A stretch of 64,000 bases of DNA from Candidatus Hydrogenedentota bacterium. GTDB lineage: Bacteria; Hydrogenedentota; Hydrogenedentia; Hydrogenedentales; SLHB01. The first letter of the stretch is position 1. Each line of letters opens with the position of its first letter. Shown one piece after another: positions 1,455-64,000 of the stretch. Position numbers and translations under genes: made by a program. The stretch lies in the NCBI GenBank assembly GCA_963745075.1, contig CAVUWV010000001.1, forward strand, positions 367,478-431,477. The letters are read 5' to 3'. The notes below the pieces were generated by a model. It saw nothing but the letters and a program-made list of their open reading frames with translations. It was not told the origin of the DNA and did not search any database.

Positions 1455-1544
1455 TCTTGTTGATGCGGCTTGGACACGGCAGTCTGCTCCGCTGGTCTTG
1501 CTGGGCCGGAACACACCGTGCACGGCTCCTCCGCAGGCTTCCGT

Positions 1545-2327
1545 TCAACTGAGCAGATATTTGGTCAGGTGGTCCCACGCGTTCGTCTGCGCCACACGCA
1601 TGATGAGGAAACTCCAGACGACAAGTACGGCGTATCCCGTGGCGTAGTATCGGTCCCAGGACCGCGTCAGCAACCGCTTGACGACAAGGAACACCAATCC
1701 CAAAACCAGCACGCCAAAGAACGGACCGAACAGGGCGCCGCACAGGGTGCCCGCGTAGAGGTTTCTAATCGCTTCGACGCGGTCCGTGGCGGCGGGGATG
1801 GCAGCCATGGTGGCCAACAGCATCATGGGGCGATGGATCTTCACCCGCTTTCGGTTCCACACGCCGACGAAGACGAAAGCGCCGAAAAGCAGGATGCTGA
1901 AGAGCGGGACCGCCAGAAAACGGTTGGGTTCGAGATTCCACAGTTTGAGGTCCGGCGGGTTGACGCTCGCCGCCGCAAAGGCCACTTTGAGGCCCGCCAG
2001 CACGATGCCGGCCGCGAGCACCGCCCCAACACGGCCGGCCATCATATGAACGCGCCGGTTCCCGGTGACCACCAGGAGCGGCTGGGCCAGGAACAACAGC
2101 ATCCAAGCCGTCATCGCGATCCCGTGGAGGATCAGCCAGATTCGAATGGGCGGAGTGAGTTCCCGATGGGGGAATGCCTTGCCGTGCAGATAAAACTGCT
2201 GGAAACCCAGGAACATGATCGTCAGGAGCAGCAAGGCCGCTCCCGTGTAAAAGTAACGTCCGAAATCGATCTTTGCATGCGTCTTCGGTTGGGGTTCGTC
2301 CAATGATAAGGTCTGGCTCGTGCCCAT
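1545..2327 (-). CDS. Conserved-type multi-pass membrane protein, function unknown
   Basis: About 7 hydrophobic segments with His residues at helix ends (LHG, RVH, KIHRPMMLLAT); GAGG RBS upstream. Confidence 0.75.
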   Translation of the reverse strand: MGTSQTLSLDEPQPKTHAKIDFGRYFYTGAALLLLTIMFLGFQQFYLHGKAFPHRELTPPIRIWLILHGIAMTAWMLLFLAQPLLVVTGNRRVHMMAGRVGAVLAAGIVLAGLKVAFAAASVNPPDLKLWNLEPNRFLAVPLFSILLFGAFVFVGVWNRKRVKIHRPMMLLATMAAIPAATDRVEAIRNLYAGTLCGALFGPFFGVLVLGLVFLVVKRLLTRSWDRYYATGYAVLVVWSFLIMRVAQTNAWDHLTKYLLS

Positions 2328-2505
2328 GATTTGACAGTTCCTCTTTGTTTGAATGTGGCGCTCAACGCGCTCGATCCCCGGACCGGATCGGGGATCGATT
2401 CACCAGAAGCGCAGATAGTACTCCAAGTCATTTGAGAAAAGGTAGCGGAATCTCAAGCGTTTCGTCCGTCTCGTCCCTGCCATCCCCGTCCCTGCTGCCC
2501 CTGCT

Positions 2506-2535
2506 GTCCGTGTAGGTCCGTGTAGGTCCGTGTAG
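2506..2535 (+). repeat. Tandem 10-mer (GTCCGTGTAG)x3, preceded by GTCCCTGC-type units
   Basis: Read directly. The same unit recurs at 4214-4263 and inverted near 56630-56680. Confidence 0.9.
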
Positions 2536-2612
2536 GTCAAGTCCGCGTTCCATTGTTTCATTTCCCTCCGCACTGCAACGCCCCGGCCTATCTTTATAAG
2601 GAGATTTCCGCC

Positions 2613-4195
2613 ATGACAAACCACCCCAAACGCCCCCGCCCTCAAAAACGAACGAATCTCGGCACCCCCTGCGCCCGCACCTGGACCAACGACTGGATCG
2701 CCACCGTCAACGCCAAAGAAGCCGGAACTCAACCACCGAATCTGCGGCGCCCGCCTCCCCGACGCCACGCCCGTTGCACCAATGCTTCCGACCACCCCTC
2801 CGGCCGCTGCCCATTCCACGGCGGATTCGACCTCACCGGCGCACCCCCCGGCAACCGCAACCACGTAATCCACGGCCTCTACTCCCGCCGCCTGAGACCC
2901 TGCACCCCCAACTGCCCCCACTGGGAAAATTGCCCCCTCGCCAACCGTCATCCTCATCCTCTCGAACGCGGGGAACACGGGGACCCATCTTCTCTCCAGC
3001 CTTCTACAAATCCACAATCGGAAGACCCATCTTCGCAATCCCAAACGTCCGATCCGACCGATCGGTGCGATCCGTCCCATTCTTCCCAACCCCCAAACCC
3101 CACACCCCCGCAACAGGATCGTCATCCTCGCGACAGCGGGGACCCATCTTCCCAATCCGATCCGTCCAATTCTTCCGATCCGTCCTATAGGTCCCATACG
3201 TCCTATAGGTCCTATCCCCCCAACGCCACGCCGACGCAATCACCGCCCACCTGCCCCTACCAACTCGCCGAATACAACACCGTCCTCACCGACGCCCTTG
3301 CCGTCGTCGAATCCCAGCCCCACCCCAACCCCATGGGCATCCACGCCGCCCACAACGTCGCCATGCTCCAAGTCCTCGTCAACGCCGCCACCGCCCACTT
3401 AGCGCAAGCCCCAAACCTCGGGTCTTCCTCTGAAGCATGGCCTTCCCCCCCTGGGCACGGGCGTCCCGCCCGTGTTCTTCCTCTTCATCCGCGACATGGG
3501 CTTCAAGCCCATGTCCTCCCGAAAACCTTAACCCCAACACCATCCTCGCCTTCACCCGCCTCATGCGCGAGTACCGCCACACACTAAAACTTCTCCAAAC
3601 ACCGGGGTACACCCCCTTGAACCGTCACAATTCCGCGGGTGCACCCCCCTCCCCCGACGGCATCCTCCGCCACGTCCAACGCACCCAACACGACACCGGT
3701 CTCGACCCCGATTCCATCGCCGCCGCTCAACTCGAGCCCCAAACCCCCGAGACCCACGCCAAAGCCTACATCCAACGCGCCGCCCTCGCCGGAGGACAAG
3801 GTCGCGACGTGGAAATGTGCGAAGCCTTCGATAACGCCGCCCTCATCGACGAACCCTACGCCGAATCCGAACGCGATCACGTCCTGGCCAGCTACCGCCC
3901 CGCAAAACAATCCGTCTCCCAAGAACTCGCCGAACTCATCCTCGGCAACCTTCATCTGCCGCCCCGACCCACAACCCACGAACAGAACCCCGACACAACC
4001 AAGCCCAACACCGACCACCCAACAAACGAAGAATCCGACGATGTGCTCCAACACTTCCTCGACCTCATAAGAGAAGGGAAAATGCCCCCCGAAGCCTTCC
4101 CCATCGGCTCCCCCCTCCGAGCCCACGTTGAAGCCATCTACACCGGCCCACCCACCACCACAACCAAGCCCACCGGCGAAGCCGGCTCCGAGTAG
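2613..4195 (+). pseudogene. HGGxSTG-motif protein (terminase small subunit-like), frameshifted and interrupted by repeats
   Basis: AAGGAG RBS; motif GRCPFHGG..TGAPPGNRNHVIHGLYSRR. ICGARLPDATP lies in the +1 frame at 2725-2772. The frame changes near a C7 run at ~3445-3451 into ORF 3437..4195. May be intact if these indels are sequencing errors. Confidence 0.7.
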
Positions 4196-4213
4196 TCCTT
4201 ATCCGTCCATATC

Positions 4214-4263
4214 GTCCGTGTAAGTCCGTGTAAGTCCGTGTAAGTCCGTGTAAGTCCGTGTAG
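4214..4263 (+). repeat. Tandem 10-mer (GTCCGTGTAA)x5, last unit ending in G
   Basis: Read directly. Confidence 0.92.
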
Positions 4264-4269
4264 CCCAGT

Positions 4270-4344
4270 TGTAGCGCAGGCGTCCCCGCCTGCAATTCCT
4301 GAGACAGAACCCCAAAGAATGCAGGCGGGGACGCCTGCGCTACA
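4270..4344. repeat. Inverted pair of GTAG-type REP-like palindromes (REP doublet)
   Basis: TGTAGCGCAGGCGTCCCCGCCTGCA ... TGCAGGCGGGGACGCCTGCGCTACA; perfect inverted arms. Confidence 0.85.
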
Positions 4345-4377
4345 TCCGCCGCTCAACCCCGGAGTGAACCCCCAAAA

Positions 4378-6013
4378 ATGCTGCGCACCCCCAACCACCT
4401 ATCGTCCTCCCCCTACTACCCACCAAAGCTCAATAACGCAAGCAGGCTTGCCTCGCCGAAGCTGACAAGCGAAGGCGGGTCCATGTGTCCGTCCATCCCA
4501 TCCCGCACCCGCTTCGCCCGCCACTACCTCCGCGACCGCCACGGTTCCCCCTGGGCGCCTTGGCCGTATCAGTCTTTGTCCTTGGAATCCCTCGCACCTC
4601 GGAAGGTGCATTGCGATGGGCGGGATGTGGGGAAAACGTCGGAGATCGAGATCGTGGCGGCGTGGGCGTCGGTGATGCGGCCGAATTCGCAGATGTTGAT
4701 TGCGACGCAGTGTGAGAATCATTTGTTTCCGTTGATGGACCGGATCGTGCGGGTGTTTGAAAGCGATTCATGGAAAGAGGGACAGACCGGTCTCGACGGA
4801 ATGAAAGAGGGCAATGAAAGAGGGACATGGGCGTGGAAAAGAGGGACAGACACGTCTCGCTTCGCTCGCTTGCGTCAGTCCCTCTTTTCCGGTCGCTGGG
4901 GTCAGTCCCTTGGTGGAGGTGAAGCGGACGCCGTCGTGGTGTTTGCGGTTTGCGAACGGGTTTGTGTTGTGGGGGCGGATTGCGGGGCCGCACGGGATGA
5001 ATTTCCAGGGGCTGCACGTGGATTGGCAGATTGTCGACGAGGCGCAGGAGATGACGGATGCGGCGTGGGAGGAGATGTTTCAGGCGTTGAACGCCGGCGG
5101 GTGGCGCTGGGTGTATGGGGTGCCGAACGGGTTGCGGAACACGTTTCACCGGATGACGACGGACCCGGACGCGGAGCAGTACAACTGGCCGTCGTCGTCG
5201 AATCCGGCGTGGTCGGCGGAGAAGGAGGCGGAGTTGGCGCGGCTGTATGGCGGCAAGGATTCGCCGGGGTACATCCATCGGGTGCTGGGGCAACACGGTT
5301 CGCCGGCGTATGCGGTGTTCGATCTGAATGCGTATCTCGCGTGTGTGGACGGGGGGCTGGAGTGGTTCGAGGCGTCGCTGGGGGAGGACGATCCCTTCGA
5401 GGCACCGTCGGGCGTGGCGAAGGGCACCCATTATCTGGGCTGCGACCTGGGGTACGTGCGCGATCCGTCGGAGTTTGTGATCTACCGGAGTGCGCCGCCG
5501 GATTTGGTGAACGTGGGGCGGGTACACTTGCACGGGGTCAATTATCATCGGCAGCAGGGCATCATCGAGGAGTTGGATCGCGCGTATGACTTCCGGGCGA
5601 TCGGCATCGATGCGGGGAACAACGGGAGCGCGGTGGCGCATAACCTGAAGAACATCGACGTGGACTGGCATGAGAAGGTCATGGCGTTCGAGTTCGGGGG
5701 CGTATGCGAAGCGGGGTCGTTTCCGGACGGGTCGCCGGACCGGCGTCCGACGAAGCTGTTCATGACGGAGCTGTTGCAGCGGCGGATGGCGGACCGGACG
5801 ATTGTGTTTCCGCCGCCGGCGGATCGGGAGTCGCAGTACGCGGGGCACACGTATACCGCCGGGATGCGGGGGCAGGTCCTGTTCGACAAGGGGAACGACC
5901 ACATTATCGACGCGGATCGGTGCGCGGTGCTGGCGCATTACCTCGACACGCAGGAGGTGGGGGCGCAGAACGTCGGTGGGTACTATCCCCGTCTCCGGTT
6001 GGAGGCGTTTTAG
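4378..6013 (+). pseudogene. Phage terminase large subunit-like protein (ATPase plus RNase H-like nuclease), one frameshift
   Basis: Q motif WPYQ, Walker A GRDVGKT, Walker B WQIVDEAQ, coupling region GVPNG, nuclease acidic motifs LGCDLG, GIDAGNNG and DHIIDA. Split between ORFs 4378..5589 and 4814..6013 by a 13-nt duplication at 4801-4826. Start may be ATG 4483. Confidence 0.85.
4771..4910. repeat. GAAAGAGGGACAGAC-type repeat/hairpin cluster inside the terminase gene
   Basis: Four AAAGAGGG(AC) units, plus an inverted pair GGAAAAGAGGGACAGAC...GTCAGTCCCTCTTTTCC. Confidence 0.75.
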
Positions 6014-6043
6014 TGTTGCAAGTTGGCGAATCCCTTACAATTC

Positions 6044-6108
6044 AATCGAAATCGAAATCGAAATCGAATTGCAAAGGCAACGTGTCTGCGATTTCGATCC
6101 CGATTTCG
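6044..6108. repeat. (AATCGA)x4 hexamer array with an inverted CGATTT-type partner
   Basis: Read directly, in the convergent gap between the terminase and the TA pair. Confidence 0.8.
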
Positions 6109-6156
6109 GCAGCGGCGAGACTGGCATGCTGCGCAGTCAGGAGCGCGCGGCGCAAC

Positions 6157-6402
6157 TTACGTATCGGACGTGACATTTTCGCGCCAGCGCGCTTCAATCG
6201 TGTCAGCGGAAAGATCGGCCCCGCACCGCCACTCGACATAGTAGCTCCCGTTGCGAACCTGGGAAAACTCGACCCAGTTTCGCAACGGCACAAAGGCCGG
6301 CGATTCGAAATACGGGCGAACATCGAAGATGCCGGAGCGGCCGTCTTCGGCGACCACATGCAGCGTGCCGTTTTCCTGTGGAGTGACCGTTGCGATTCTC
6401 AC
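6157..6402 (-). CDS. DUF2442-family protein (putative antitoxin)
   Basis: GTG start overlaps the upstream TGA (GTGA). Motifs DG.SGIFDV.PY and VEWRCGADLSADTI. Confidence 0.8.
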   Translation of the reverse strand: MRIATVTPQENGTLHVVAEDGRSGIFDVRPYFESPAFVPLRNWVEFSQVRNGSYYVEWRCGADLSADTIEARWRENVTSDT

Positions 6403-6671
6403 TGATCCAATCCTCGAATAGGCAAGGGATTCTGGCCGTTTACAGCCAGTTCCCAATCCGCCATCAAGTCTTCCTGATGAATCTCGATCCAGGCGACCAC
6501 CAGTTTATGCTTCTTCGGCGGCAGACTACCTGCCAACACGCTTCCGTCCGCAATCGAATACACGGCGACCTCGCCCTGATAGTCCGCATGAATGTGTGGC
6601 AAGTGATGTCTGTCTGTGTCGTGAAAGAACATTCGGATCAAAATGCCGTAGAACATCGATATCGTAGGCAT
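6399..6671 (-). CDS. DUF4160-family protein (putative toxin)
   Basis: MPTISMFYGILIRMFF..D.HHLPHIHA.Y and LVVAWIEIHQEDLMADW; AGGAG RBS. Confidence 0.88.
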   Translation of the reverse strand: MPTISMFYGILIRMFFHDTDRHHLPHIHADYQGEVAVYSIADGSVLAGSLPPKKHKLVVAWIEIHQEDLMADWELAVNGQNPLPIRGLDQ

Positions 6672-6848
6672 GCGACCTGCTCCTGTTTCTCACGGCGCCC
6701 AGAGATGACCGATGTATCCAGTTTTCTCGGAGCAACGGCCATCCATAGCTTACGCAGTCATTATTCCACGTCAATCGCGCCCCGGTCTACCTCGTCCGTG
6801 GTAGTTTCCACGGGGGCCGCCTCCCCTACTTGCGCCGCCGTCTCGCCG

Positions 6849-12554: not shown

Positions 12555-12630
12555 GGGGATGTAGCTCAGTTGGGAGAGCGCTTGTCTGGCAGACAAGAGG
12601 TCAGGGGTTCGATTCCCCTCATCTCCACCA
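12555..12630 (+). tRNA. tRNA-Ala(GGC)
   Basis: 76-nt cloverleaf: acceptor GGGGATG/CATCTCC with G3:U70, anticodon arm CTTGT-CTGGCAG-ACAAG, GGTTCGATT T-loop, encoded CCA. Confidence 0.97.
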
Positions 12631-59200: not shown

Positions 59201-60388
59201 ATGATTCAATCCCTTCGTCACAACCGGCGCACATGTCTGTGTTCGCTGATCTCCCTTTCGCTGGCCCTTGCGGTGTTCGGTGGGCCGACCTCACAAGCCG
59301 ACGGACCCAGCCGGGAACGGGTCTTAGCTACCATGGCGAAGGCTTCGGACTTCATGATGAACACAGTGTCCAATCGCGGCGGTTTCGTCTGGGCCTATAG
59401 TCTCGATCTGGAACCGTATGGCGAGTTGCCCGCGCGCAAGAGCATGATCTGGGTGGAGCCGCCGGGAACGCCCACCGTGGGGCTGATGTTTCTGGAGGCG
59501 TATCGTGCGACGGGCGATTCCATCTACCTCGACTATGCGAAGCGCGTGGCGAAACCACTGATCCTGGGGCAGCATCCGTCCGGCGGATGGCATTATTTCA
59601 TCGACTTCGACCCCGCCGGGCTTCAGGCGTACTACGACGAATTCTTCTCCAAGTGCTGGGGCTGGCAGGAATACCTCCATTATTACGGCAACTGCACCTT
59701 CGACGATTACAGCACGACCGAGCCGACGCGGTTCTTGCTTCGGCTTTACGATGTCACCCAGGATCCGGAGTTTCGTGTGCCGTTGATGAAGGCGCTGGGC
59801 CACATCCTGCGCGCGCAATATCCGAACGGCGCGTGGCCTCAGCGGTATCCCACGGGCACGTTGTTTCCGCGCGCCGATATTCCGGACTACACGCCGTTCT
59901 ACACCTTTAACGACGGGGTGATGTCCGATACCATCGATACGCTCCTGGAAGCGTACCGGACCCTCGGCGATCCGGCGTATGAGGAAGCCGCACGCCGTGG
60001 GATGGAGTTCTATCTCATCGCGCAATTGCCGGAACCGCAGGCCGGCTGGGCGCAGCAATATAGTTTCAACATGAAACCGGCCTGGGGACGGCCTTTCGAG
60101 ATTGGCACGGTCTGTGCGGGCGAGACAACGTCGTGCATTCAGGACCTCTTCACGTTCTACACGATCACCGGGGACAGCCGATTCCTGGATGCCGTTCCGC
60201 CGGCGTTGGATTGGCTGGATCGGTCGCGCATCCCCGGCGCGGAGGGGTACACGCACACGTACTATTACGAGCTCGGCACGAATCGGCCCGAATACATTCG
60301 CCAAAGCGGGGAGACCATCGACGACGTCAATGGTTATGTTGTGTGGCTGAGTTTCAGTTTACGTGTATTTGTAGAGCGAAAAATATAG
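59201..60388 (+). CDS. Pectate lyase (PL10/PelA-like), truncated at the junction near 60330
   Basis: GQHPSGGW, TFDD..T, AQYPNGAWPQRYP, TFNDGV and GWAQQY...PAWGRPFE. The last ~19 codons come from the foreign AT-rich sequence. Confidence 0.85.
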   Translation: MIQSLRHNRRTCLCSLISLSLALAVFGGPTSQADGPSRERVLATMAKASDFMMNTVSNRGGFVWAYSLDLEPYGELPARKSMIWVEPPGTPTVGLMFLEAYRATGDSIYLDYAKRVAKPLILGQHPSGGWHYFIDFDPAGLQAYYDEFFSKCWGWQEYLHYYGNCTFDDYSTTEPTRFLLRLYDVTQDPEFRVPLMKALGHILRAQYPNGAWPQRYPTGTLFPRADIPDYTPFYTFNDGVMSDTIDTLLEAYRTLGDPAYEEAARRGMEFYLIAQLPEPQAGWAQQYSFNMKPAWGRPFEIGTVCAGETTSCIQDLFTFYTITGDSRFLDAVPPALDWLDRSRIPGAEGYTHTYYYELGTNRPEYIRQSGETIDDVNGYVVWLSFSLRVFVERKI

Positions 60389-63300
60389 AAAGCGATGCTT
60401 CTGGGCCACTTACCGTAACGGGCTGCAAAAAAGATAAAATTTAAGAGTAATTTTCTGCAAAGCGCATAGCAGATGTTATCCTACAAACGGAGCAAGAAAT
60501 GGCCGAACCACTATTTGCCAAGCCATCCTTCGGCATCCAAGCAGCCAAATTGAAGAAGAATATATGACTCAACACAATAGAACTTACCGAAATAGTAGAG
60601 CTCGTCGAAACAATTCGGCGCTTTGCAGAATGGCATTGCTTTCAGATGGGTTTCAACGTCAACCATTCGAGGGCATTGGCAGCATGGCCTTCCAACTGGC
60701 ATTTCACAGATTGGAAACATTTCTCATCACCGAACTGGAAATATCAATGAAATCAGCGCCAAGGCCAGCTCCACACCATATCTACACCGGAAGACGACTT
60801 CACAAGCCCTGACATGTACCACAGTACCAGCTCCACCCGGGCATCAAAGCAAGCCGGGTGGCGGCGGCGATGCAGTTTTTGGGAGAAGATCGCGCACGCT
60901 TCACCAGATGGACGCGTCGTGGTGCCGGGCAGGCTGCAGGTGCACGCCCATCGACAAATCCTGAAGCCAAAGCCATTGCCGACGCCCGGACTATGTTCTA
61001 CGGCCCAACTTCCTATGCGCGGTGATGGAAACCAAACGCAATGCCTTTGCCATCGCCACCTCCACAGGTATCCGACCAGCCCTGCATGGCTCACGGAGAT
61101 GAACACCTTGCTCTCAGCACCACCAAAGGGCAATGGTCCTTGAACTACTAGTCAACAATTTTGCCGCCGACCCATTTGGAGCACCGACCTATGGCCATGA
61201 ACAGTCTACCGGGCCTGGAGGCTGTAACCTCTGCCGACAATCAAAACTGTCAATTTTCTACCACCTTCAATGAATCAATCCGTGGAAACGGGCCTGGCAG
61301 GGAGAGCTTGCCGGTAAAAAACCAGCTGCTCCAGCATGTATGGCCATCGATCGCGCCGTGAACAGAAACCGTGCGCCAAAGGACAAGGCATCATTGTTTT
61401 CCGGGTCATGGCCACCGACTCGGCAAACCTACACCGCTCCAGATCCATCTGAGGCGGCTGTGGAAAGCAAAAAGGAAAAAGCCGTCCTGTTTCTGCCCAA
61501 CCGCAAACATCGCCATGAACAGACACATCCAGCAGGACTTGCCCCTTCGGCAGAGGTGATGCACAAAATCCATCACAAGGAAAATGGAAAAAAGAACTCT
61601 GCAAATGTCTCTCAGCCTCTACACAGGCTGTCACTGAGGTAATAGTGAGTGAAAATTAAATATACCACAGTTCCCTCCAATTCTAGAAGTACTATTGGTG
61701 GTGGTGAGAAGCAGAAATACCCACCACCGGGCAGTCACAAAGTTCCCGCCCTGACACACAGAAGTGCTCCAATTATCTCTCCCCCACCCCCACCACCCAC
61801 CTGGCAAGGATTTGACTCCCCACCCCCAAAGAAGAAAACCAAACAAAATTAACACCAAAACCTATTTGGCCAACCTTATTGCATTACTACTCCTCAAGCA
61901 GGCATGAAACAGCTTGCTGGCTCATACAAAGTGATCCGCATCATCAACAATTTCATGAATGCCCGTCCACACTTTGCCCCAAAAGCCGGCGAAACCAACA
62001 ATACGGTAAACCGGTGAACCACGCATCTGAACACCACCAAAGAGGTTGCCGACACAAATAATCAAACGCCTACCCGACAGTGCAACCTCACTGCAACCTG
62101 GAATATGTACTCAAGAGACCAACCCATGCAAAAGCATCTGCATGGTGGCATTCAACTATACAATTCCCGGCTTTCCGGCAATGTGACCAGTACGGGAAAA
62201 GGTTCTTGGTCCCCCTTTTTTCAACCGGCCGCCGCTGCTCTCGGCGTACACCAATCCATGCAAAAGTCAAATCACCCTGTCGAACCAACAGATCCAAATC
62301 CTCCACCCTAATTCCCTTCATCAGAAAGCAATCCCATACCCGGCCCCCGGATGCAACTGAAATGTTGCCACCATGAATGAAACGATGACAGCCTCTCAAA
62401 GCTCAACGAGCATGAGGCCCTGGCCAAAAAGGCCAACAGAAGAAAGATTTCAGCAAACTCATTACCCCGCGAGATGAACTCTACCTCACTGAAAAGATGG
62501 CCACTCACAACCCAAAGGTGGACCCATAAGCGAAAGTAAATGAACATTTTTCGCCATCCAATCATGACTCAGAAGGATGCGAAACTTCATCTGATAACGC
62601 CACAGTAGTGTTCCTATACTTTTTAGGTGATAGTTCCACAGTTGTCAAAGTCCATAACGGGTAACACCAAAAATAAAATGTAATGATTCCCAATGGTGAA
62701 CCCGTTATACGGCAAGACATTGATGGCAGGCAAAAGCAAAAGCTGCCGCCTGAAGTTGGTGAAGCAAAGGTACCCAAAGGGTTGCCGACCCAAATTTTAT
62801 GCTCCGCTCTTGTCATCGGCTTTGCAATACCCAAAGGAGGTGTTGCTGCTGGGTATGAAAATGAACGAGCTCCGCTTGCACCCAACCATCAAAATATTTC
62901 CAGTCTCCGGCTTTGATTGCAACAAACGGAAACCCACCCTATAGATCTACATGAAGCATGTGAAAAGTCACAAAAACAGGCATTGTTACAGGATATAACA
63001 TTTCAATGTCCAGACGATGGGTCTCCACTTCAAGGGGATGTGTACAAGCAATGATGATGGCCAACAACAATTCGAACTGCCTACCCCAGTGCAAAACTCT
63101 CTCCCGAACGGCAATGTGGGGGAAATGAGTATAAGTTACAAATCTTAAAGCTTCCTGCCTAATAAAAGAGCTATAGATCAAAATGTAAAGTTGAACCCCT
63201 GAAGCAGTATCACCCCTTTTTTTTTTTTTTTTTTATTTTCAGAAAGCCTCATCAAATACAAGGCAATCTGAATTCCTCATCCCATTGGCAGATGAGAATT

Positions 63301-64000
63301 GGATGACATATATATAAGGAGCTCACATGGTGTCAAAAGGCATGCATTACCCCCACATTCACCAGCCTGCTGTTGCTCAGGGCACCAAAAGAGCAGATGT
63401 ACACACTTTGTTGCCCAGCTTGTCATCGATCTGCTTGCAACTGGAAAGCACAATACAGTGAACAAATTCCAACAACTACAACTTCGATGAAATCAAACAT
63501 TTTCAAGCTGATGTTAAAGCAAAAAACGAATATCAATGCGCTCCTTCAGATATCTCAACTTCAAAAACCAGCAGCCACTTCCACAAGCACTTTTTATATC
63601 AATACACTGTTCATCAAATATTTCACAACTCAGATATCCACATCCAACTCAATCAGATGACATATCCAAACACCACCAACCATCTTGTTCAGGGGGTGGT
63701 GGTGGTTCACTCAAAATTTCCGTCGTCGTCGCCGCACTCGCAATATCTTGCTGCTGGCAATTCATGAAAACATTGGTTTCACAGATCTTGGCAGGATTCA
63801 TTGGATCACGGTCTGCGGACAGTGCTCCGCTATGACCAGCACCACCCCAAACCAGCATGTCGATGCCCACAGATAACAATCCAAATGTCCAGCACCAAGG
63901 CAACTCAATTCCTTGAAATGATCTTGTATCCCACCATGAAACAAAACCAGCCACGCCATGCCCATGGATCACCTGGATAGTTTCCAAATTGGCCGATATC
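60331..64000. other. Compositionally foreign, eukaryote-like DNA (probable chimeric join)
   Basis: Abrupt GC drop, no long ORFs or RBS-linked genes, CpG scarcity with CA/TG excess, T18 tract followed by ATTTTCAG. Confidence 0.8.

Follow-up and report, generated by a model that had tools for sequence, protein, structure and literature searches.

Gene transfer agents (GTAs) are held to be "selfless" particles on account of a small terminase that has lost its DNA specificity. Among the systems closest to the locus described here, DsGTA has been proposed to package headfuls in two directions from seven peaks (PMC5786225), and the lack of a DNA-binding domain in GTA small terminases has been proposed to explain random packaging (PMC11841831, PMC6854486). 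Run-off replication is tied to the GTA in Bartonella (PMC2697382), and Staphylococcus aureus pathogenicity islands (SaPIs) still transfer from a terS-deleted helper (PMC12829572). The present analysis concerns a 64,000-nucleotide stretch of DNA from a Candidatus Hydrogenedentota bacterium (the window; positions given without a contig are window positions), in which a gene with an HGG motif (the HGG gene) precedes a large terminase gene (terL). The reading that is given about an even chance is that this locus is a mobile extra terminase module, a selfish add-on that would redirect packaging by a GTA-like particle of the host to the module's own neighborhood. For the comparisons, 135 Hydrogenedentota genomes (G numbers) were used, the source genome being G000; contigs, other loci, and proteins of relatives carry C, L, and P numbers, respectively.

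Judged by its motifs and profile matches, the downstream gene (4378..6013, + strand) is a phage large terminase with an N-terminal ATPase and a C-terminal RNase H-type nuclease. The frame at 4814-6013, which encodes the C-terminal part, matched the terminase family phrog_2 (E 2.8e-15), and a profile of 48 relatives matched the ATPase and nuclease chains of solved phage TerL structures (4zni, 5m1q, and 5tge). Walker A lies at 4618, Walker B at 5030, motif III at 5117, and the nuclease motifs at 5438, 5603, and 5897; these motifs are kept in 107-113 of 113 full-length homologues. A reading made earlier from the letters alone (the sequence-only reading) had the full motif set retained despite heavy repeat insertion, and all six motifs are present; as assembled, they are split over two frames, with Walker A in the frame starting at 4378 and the other five in the next. 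The shift lies within a repeat insert of ~140 bp in a loop of the protein (4770..4912, + strand), where the window gene is one base longer than its paralogue on C24 (near 4812), a difference that replaced a 13-bp duplication considered as the cause of the break. The relatives P0001 and P0003 have in-frame inserts at the same loop.

The upstream HGG gene is a single gene (2613..4195, + strand) that is open as 474 amino acids (aa) on contig C36 and is split near 3455 in the window, where a G run is one G shorter than in the open copy. The protein has a Cys/His-rich N-terminal domain with invariant Cys and His residues (motif at 2802-2861), followed by helical domains. The sequence-only reading had named an HGGxSTG motif; the motif is in fact CxxHGGFDLTG, and the N-terminus of the window protein scored 17.8 bits with the hidden Markov model (HMM) NF041373, under its cut-off of 29. 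Elsewhere, P0121 scored 22.8 bits, and the best family member reached E 6e-10. NF041373 matched 54 of 55 family members at E<=0.05, and the TerS model NF040601 matched 24 of 55; the protein is likely small-terminase-like. The ESM Atlas gave only unnamed clusters below 0.9, and scans of viral contigs with the family alignment and with single proteins gave no match.

Homologues point to Hydrogenedentota, and three terL copies occur in G000: that of the window, one on C24 (96%), and one on C8 (71%) that is intact, encodes 488 aa, and follows a short helical gene. All three were missed by a phrog_2 scan of the whole genome. About 130 kb from the C8 copy, hereafter the resident terL, lies a particle cluster (C8:463063-472354; L114) with matches to portal (Portal_Mu E 7e-10), capsid (phrog_3922 E 4e-52), and Dit (E 3e-12). 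It also has a decoration gene, a weak holin, and genes resembling a protease, a connector, a hub, and a fibre; the last three of these labels are partly our own reading. The hub-like gene (584 aa) holds a staphylococcal-nuclease-like domain (PF00565 E 4e-6). PF04860 found no portal, a false negative, the portal being Mu-type. Tail tube and tape measure had no match within the cluster, to which that search was confined, and no integrase or replication gene was seen among the 11 proteins of the cluster that were scanned, for which the protease of G063 was used, or among the neighbors, which were read by eye. Across the phylum, terL was found in 123, the portal in 119, and the capsid in 114 of the 135 genomes, and in 83, 81, and 78, respectively, of the 86 genomes with a completeness of 90% or more. 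The portal and capsid genes are single-copy, terL mostly so; in G063 and G034, the cluster adjoins terL. The ratio of nonsynonymous to synonymous substitution rates (dN/dS) was 0.02-0.13 across eight resident terL pairs, viral relatives of terL reach an identity of 38% at most, and ComEC and DprA are present. The resident set has a GTA-like profile.

The description of the window terminase as an orphan therefore holds locally, as no head, tail, or integrase family occurs among the 42 called neighbors (31 in the window and 11 upstream), and fails for the genome, where portal and capsid lie on C8. A decaying prophage was rejected, there being no nearby phage genes, no close viral relatives, and no neutral decay by dN/dS. 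Domestication along GTA-like or satellite-like lines, which the sequence-only reading had preferred to such a prophage, suits the terL family, which is near-universal, under purifying selection, and at most 38% identical to viruses; the window copy itself is a derived extra copy in an insertion and not the vertically kept one.

Other terminase loci were also seen. In L064, L065, and L066, terL is more distant (41-43%) and is joined by a small subunit of its own and an HNH gene, with a weak replisome-organizer match in two of them; no portal or integrase occurs within the stretch examined, and these loci form a further type of orphan module. L068-L075 and L243 are prophage-like, their terL (32-36%) being accompanied by a portal, an integrase, a primase, and a head-morphogenesis gene of 1,500 aa, and the viral contig L243 holds relatives of terL, portal, and protease at 31-38%.

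Tree placement and the sites in congeners indicate that the window pair is a mobile extra copy, with a derived terL beside an HGG gene. In a quick tree of 69 TerL rows, in which long branches are present, the window terL fell in a clade of 11 (Shimodaira-Hasegawa-like approximate likelihood ratio test support 100) inside the resident diversity. The inserted segment (1472..6848, no strand, limits approximate) is absent as a whole, 5.4 kb, from the congeners G105, G106, and G107, which join 1-1471 to 6849 onward and have 0.6-1.6 kb of other DNA at the site instead. Because a derived extra copy sits in an insertion missing from three congeners, the vertical phylogeny and conserved two-gene context that had been foreseen for the pair fail. 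A dN/dS below 1, foreseen as well, was borne out: ratios were 0.06-0.26 in 11 pairs of the derived terL clade and 0.08 between the window and C24 copies downstream of the break. For the HGG gene, 36 pairs gave 0.21-0.67, with synonymous sites near saturation. This gene was found in 30 of the 135 genomes, where it is often multicopy and mostly unaccompanied by terL; one copy from G107 forms a group with four from G106 (support 99). The two genes stand in tandem in the window, L002, and L091, and diverge with cargo between them in C24, L004, L007, and L008. The cargo of HGG loci includes Thoeris ThsA (E 3e-172), FRG, HEPN, TIR, and KAP proteins, and toxin-antitoxin pairs. In the window, the left neighbor (1545..2327, - strand), which had been counted with the housekeeping flank, is cargo of the insertion: it encodes a 260-aa membrane protein with no Pfam family over the cut-off that travels with the module; G106:C1 has it beside the HGG gene and G107:C475 beside the derived terL.

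At the corresponding empty sites, G107 has an acetyltransferase-like gene (C3:35218-35805; read from the sequence) and G106 a REP-transposase-like gene with repeats (C9:79527-81142), REP denoting repetitive extragenic palindromic.

Upstream of the HGG gene lie TGCAAC, an A/T-rich box, and a ribosome-binding site, in that order. This promoter-like motif, m1 (2574..2612, + strand; TGCAAC, spacer, TATAAG, and then the ribosome-binding site), is common to the window HGG gene, the resident portal operon, and the resident small-subunit operon, and its shape suggests a promoter for an alternative sigma factor; no sigma-70 promoter and no Rfam family were found in the module. Within -200 to +40 of the start, the word [TC]GCAA[CT] occurred in all four portals, in 25 of the 33 resident small subunits, and in 26 of the 30 HGG genes; for terL, usually the second gene of its operon, the count was 18 of 65. 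Close-kin loci in these counts are not independent. When a matrix trained on relatives was run on G000, the top five of 29 matches were two HGG copies, two D5 helicases, and the portal. A second motif, m2 (3610..3655, + strand), consists of a C-run, TTGAACCGTCA, and then a G-run/C-run palindrome. After merging, 26 sites of G000 carry m1 or m2 (e.g., C1:149172, C24:237218, and C32:72142), and about 22 of these are non-coding relics composed of m1, a short start, and m2, often doubled.

The two D5-type helicase genes (C20:222920-224320 and C24:14590-16020, ranks 3 and 4 of the 29 matches) are near-identical, stand alone, and carry the TGCAAC motif. They are possibly a second passenger of the regulon.

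The account of the locus given by the sequence-only reading leaves out a strand-skew flip inside terL, from -0.39 on the left to +0.27 on the right. It is the sharpest local flip among 134,435 genome positions (z 10.1), and the next three are at other HGG copies. At fourfold sites, the G:C counts go from 1:8 at 4483 through 4:3 at 4579 to 10:0 at 4627, which places the change from C to G at 4550..4625 (no strand), the same spot as in L002 and L091. The effect is one of synonymous sites, the HGG gene having about 80% C and the derived terL 84% G at fourfold positions; all 11 terL rows of the derived clade are G-skewed there (+0.37 to +0.86). With 3 kb on either side omitted, the long-range flip stood at the 99th percentile for the window, the 97th for C24, and the 94th for C36. 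The 21 measurable m1/m2 sites averaged +0.105 (p 1e-4), and the 17 measurable non-coding relics +0.083 (p 0.004 versus intergenic gaps). Of 19 loci, 12 have the flip 35-404 bp past the HGG stop (two of these represent one orthologous site) and four have it 735-1,754 bp past, with three not measurable; no shared sequence at the flip position was found across loci. Along G000, the fourfold skew forms a sawtooth with 10 steps of origin polarity and 4 of terminus polarity, with slow decay between them. A chromosomal origin was rejected as the cause because flips are numerous and none coincides with dnaA. In the complete genome G034, local sign changes were seen in 42 sampled stretches, a sampling too sparse to map flips.

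A packaging start at the module would explain a sharp strand-composition flip centered there. Under the proposed mechanism, the shared promoter would switch the module on together with the particle genes, and the HGG protein would bind at or near its own gene and recruit a terminase, which may be the derived or the resident one because many HGG copies have no terL. This terminase would cut ~35-400 bp past the HGG 3' end, at no fixed sequence, and headful packaging would run both ways and fade with distance, so that module and cargo would be over-transferred; a cut past the gene and a two-way headful series would together give a center with decay. The HGG protein would thereby restore the self-targeting lost in GTA small terminases, as suggested by its Cys/His domain, the weak TerS matches, the GTA-type promoter, and the recurring place beside a captured terL. 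On uptake and recombination, each packaged piece would be exposed for a time as a single strand, the + strand to the right of the cut and the - strand to its left, and many rounds of such exposure would leave an origin-like skew flip; this is the weakest step. The polarity of the flip would fit if the last-packaged end were the first to enter the recipient and ComEC-type uptake were to keep the 3'-leading strand. The account in its most complete form, an integrase-free selfish gene giving a sequence-blind packaging system a self-targeting small terminase, with a captured large subunit and with skew flips as a fossil map of packaging starts, is offered tentatively, as possible but on balance doubtful.

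The same mechanics could serve the host, as a kept variant that targets particle packaging to islands of defense genes. The defense cargo between or beside the genes, the purifying selection, and the shared promoter would agree with this; the patchy spread, changing sites, lineage-specific expansion, and many relics look more parasite-like, and a host-beneficial variant is thought quite improbable.

Several findings weigh against the selfish add-on. No target-site duplication was found at the insertion, and no integrase was found to account for arrival at new sites. The identity of the HGG protein rests on sub-threshold HMM matches; its AlphaFold model (pLDDT 75) had no Foldseek match at E<=0.001, and a profile comparison matched it to the resident small subunit only at E 0.43, which is not significant. 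Particle formation, expression, binding, and cutting are all predictions from the genome sequence. In the tandem layout, the presumed cut falls inside terL and would split the module. C27 has no long-range flip (69th percentile), and 10 of 30 HGG loci, the more distant ones, have no skew or the opposite skew (counted from bins). Of the 10 steps with origin polarity, six lie more than 10 kb from any motif site, the two largest (C8 453k and C18 23k) among them; the largest flip is ~11 kb from the particle cluster. The left flank of the C51 site in G106 is C-rich, and so is its counterpart in G000, which has no HGG gene there. Two further short-repeat families are positive (+0.16 at five sites and +0.14 at four), and since other repeats lean toward flips in this way, flips may attract junk. 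Finally, the window terL and HGG gene are both frameshifted as assembled, by a single base each, one of them in a G run.

On another reading, the module would be a passenger, the flips being older than it (resident packaging hot zones, break-prone sites, or dormant origins) and collecting repeats, defense genes, and terminases, with the extra terL serving as a spare in trans. Flips without the motif, the skew of the C51 site in both genomes, and the leaning of other repeats all point that way, as do the different insertions that the empty site holds in G106 and G107; in G034, where no HGG gene was found, the strongest skew of the 42 sampled stretches is at the particle cluster. What speaks against a passenger is that G107, with the empty site, shows no left-flank skew: 17 of 19 left-flank genes of the window are more C-rich than their orthologues in G107 (means -0.15 versus 0.003), and at an insertion specific to G106, 19 of 19 paired genes shift the same way, although these tests amount to two natural experiments rather than 38 independent points, in regions that are both partly rearranged. 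The right flank of the window was uninformative (five genes). Moreover, the flip tracks the HGG 3' end at unrelated sites, and REP hairpins, which as a control averaged +0.057, show no flip at the 17 of 28 sites distant from the motifs (mean 0.0). A passenger is judged unlikely.

The polarity of the steps also bears on another explanation, in which the HGG gene or m2 is a local two-way replication origin (run-off as in Bartonella, or restart from a terminase cut) that amplifies the region before packaging, the skew being a leading-strand bias. Replication from such a site predicts the same polarity, and the excess of origin-type over terminus-type steps that fade with distance, the absence of dnaA from the flips, the promoter motif of the two D5-type helicase genes, and the tie of run-off replication to the GTA in Bartonella (PMC2697382) are in its favor. 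The helicase was rejected as a core run-off factor, being patchy (24 of 135 genomes); it was not found in G106, which has flips, and is not itself at a flip. The HGG protein had no replication-protein match in HMM and fold searches. A replication origin is considered rather improbable, though it counts, like the passenger reading, as a genuine competitor, and the selfish add-on reading is retained.

With respect to the frameshifts, comparison with congeners showed a shifted or prematurely ended frame in 17 of 167 orthologues of the G000 assembly, a few false calls included, and the resident protease is among the broken genes. About one gene in ten is thus broken in this assembly, and pseudogene calls in it need care. 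The copies on C24 and C27 are broken as well, and these breaks and those of both window genes are what would be expected if the window copy and its kin were decaying duplicates with no current function. The single-base nature of the window breaks, the background rate of broken genes, the open frames in the copies of relatives, and the low dN/dS downstream of the break make decay of the whole group very improbable. That the window copy alone is dead is a serious possibility, somewhat short of even.

Of the remaining features of the window, a 10-bp tandem repeat precedes the HGG gene (2506..2538, + strand) and recurs at 4214-4262, and a REP-like hairpin with 25-bp perfect arms lies at 4270..4344 (no strand) and has many copies in the genome. 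The HGG gene had been placed directly before terL; with its end at 4195, 182 bp of repeats intervene. After terL, a DUF2442 gene (6157..6456, - strand; PF10387 E 4.8e-10) and a DUF4160 gene (6399..6671, - strand; PF13711 E 1.8e-24) form what we take to be a toxin-antitoxin-like pair, in agreement with the flanking pair of the sequence-only reading. Four open reading frames of the window had no Pfam match. Farther along, a tRNA gene at 12555-12627 is followed by low-scoring DNA, and GC falls to 43% at 60000-64000; these are possibly other islands.

If the proposed reading is true, self-targeting restored by a mobile gene would make that gene the predicted cheater of a GTA and a direct handle on why GTAs persist, and GTA packaging bias would be readable from the genome sequence alone in an uncultured phylum. 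The sawtooth skew predicts where particle DNA should pile up, and skew flips in this phylum do not mark oriC. In the literature searched, with limited subscription coverage, no paper dealt with a GTA of Hydrogenedentota, with a satellite or add-on specific to GTAs, or with skew flips at packaging sites, and none contained the term HGGxSTG.

Compared with known systems, the resident set resembles RcGTA and DsGTA of Alphaproteobacteria and the two-operon FpGTA of Faecalibacterium in having phylum-wide, single-copy head and packaging genes spread over several loci, no integrase or replication gene in the cluster, and a short helical small subunit before terL. FpGTA is short-tailed (PMC12946183), and the resident cluster is like it in that searches there gave no match to a tail tube or tape measure. 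Those GTAs come from other phyla, and the set described here is a candidate GTA read from its genes; their small terminases have no DNA-binding domain, whereas here there is a second, mobile partner with an added Cys/His domain that is absent from the resident small subunit. In phage-inducible chromosomal islands (PICIs) and SaPIs, an element-borne small terminase redirects helper packaging, as the small-terminase-like gene of the module would, and defense cargo lies beside it (PMC12829572). The module differs from them in its size of 2-8 kb and in having no integrase, repressor, primase, or att sites, so that it falls outside the definition of a PICI; its presumed helper is a GTA of the host rather than a phage, and some copies carry a terL derived from that helper. 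Lateral transduction is one-sided, whereas the footprint of the module is two-sided. The Bartonella BaGTA resembles the system proposed here as a GTA with a local center whose signal fades both ways (PMC2697382) and differs in that here there are many centers per genome, no conserved helicase, and centers that follow a terminase-like gene. Last, HGGxSTG proteins (NF041373) share the CGAR...GRC..HGG core with the HGG protein, which differs from them in its HGGFDLTG motif, a score below the cut-off, and about 300 extra residues.

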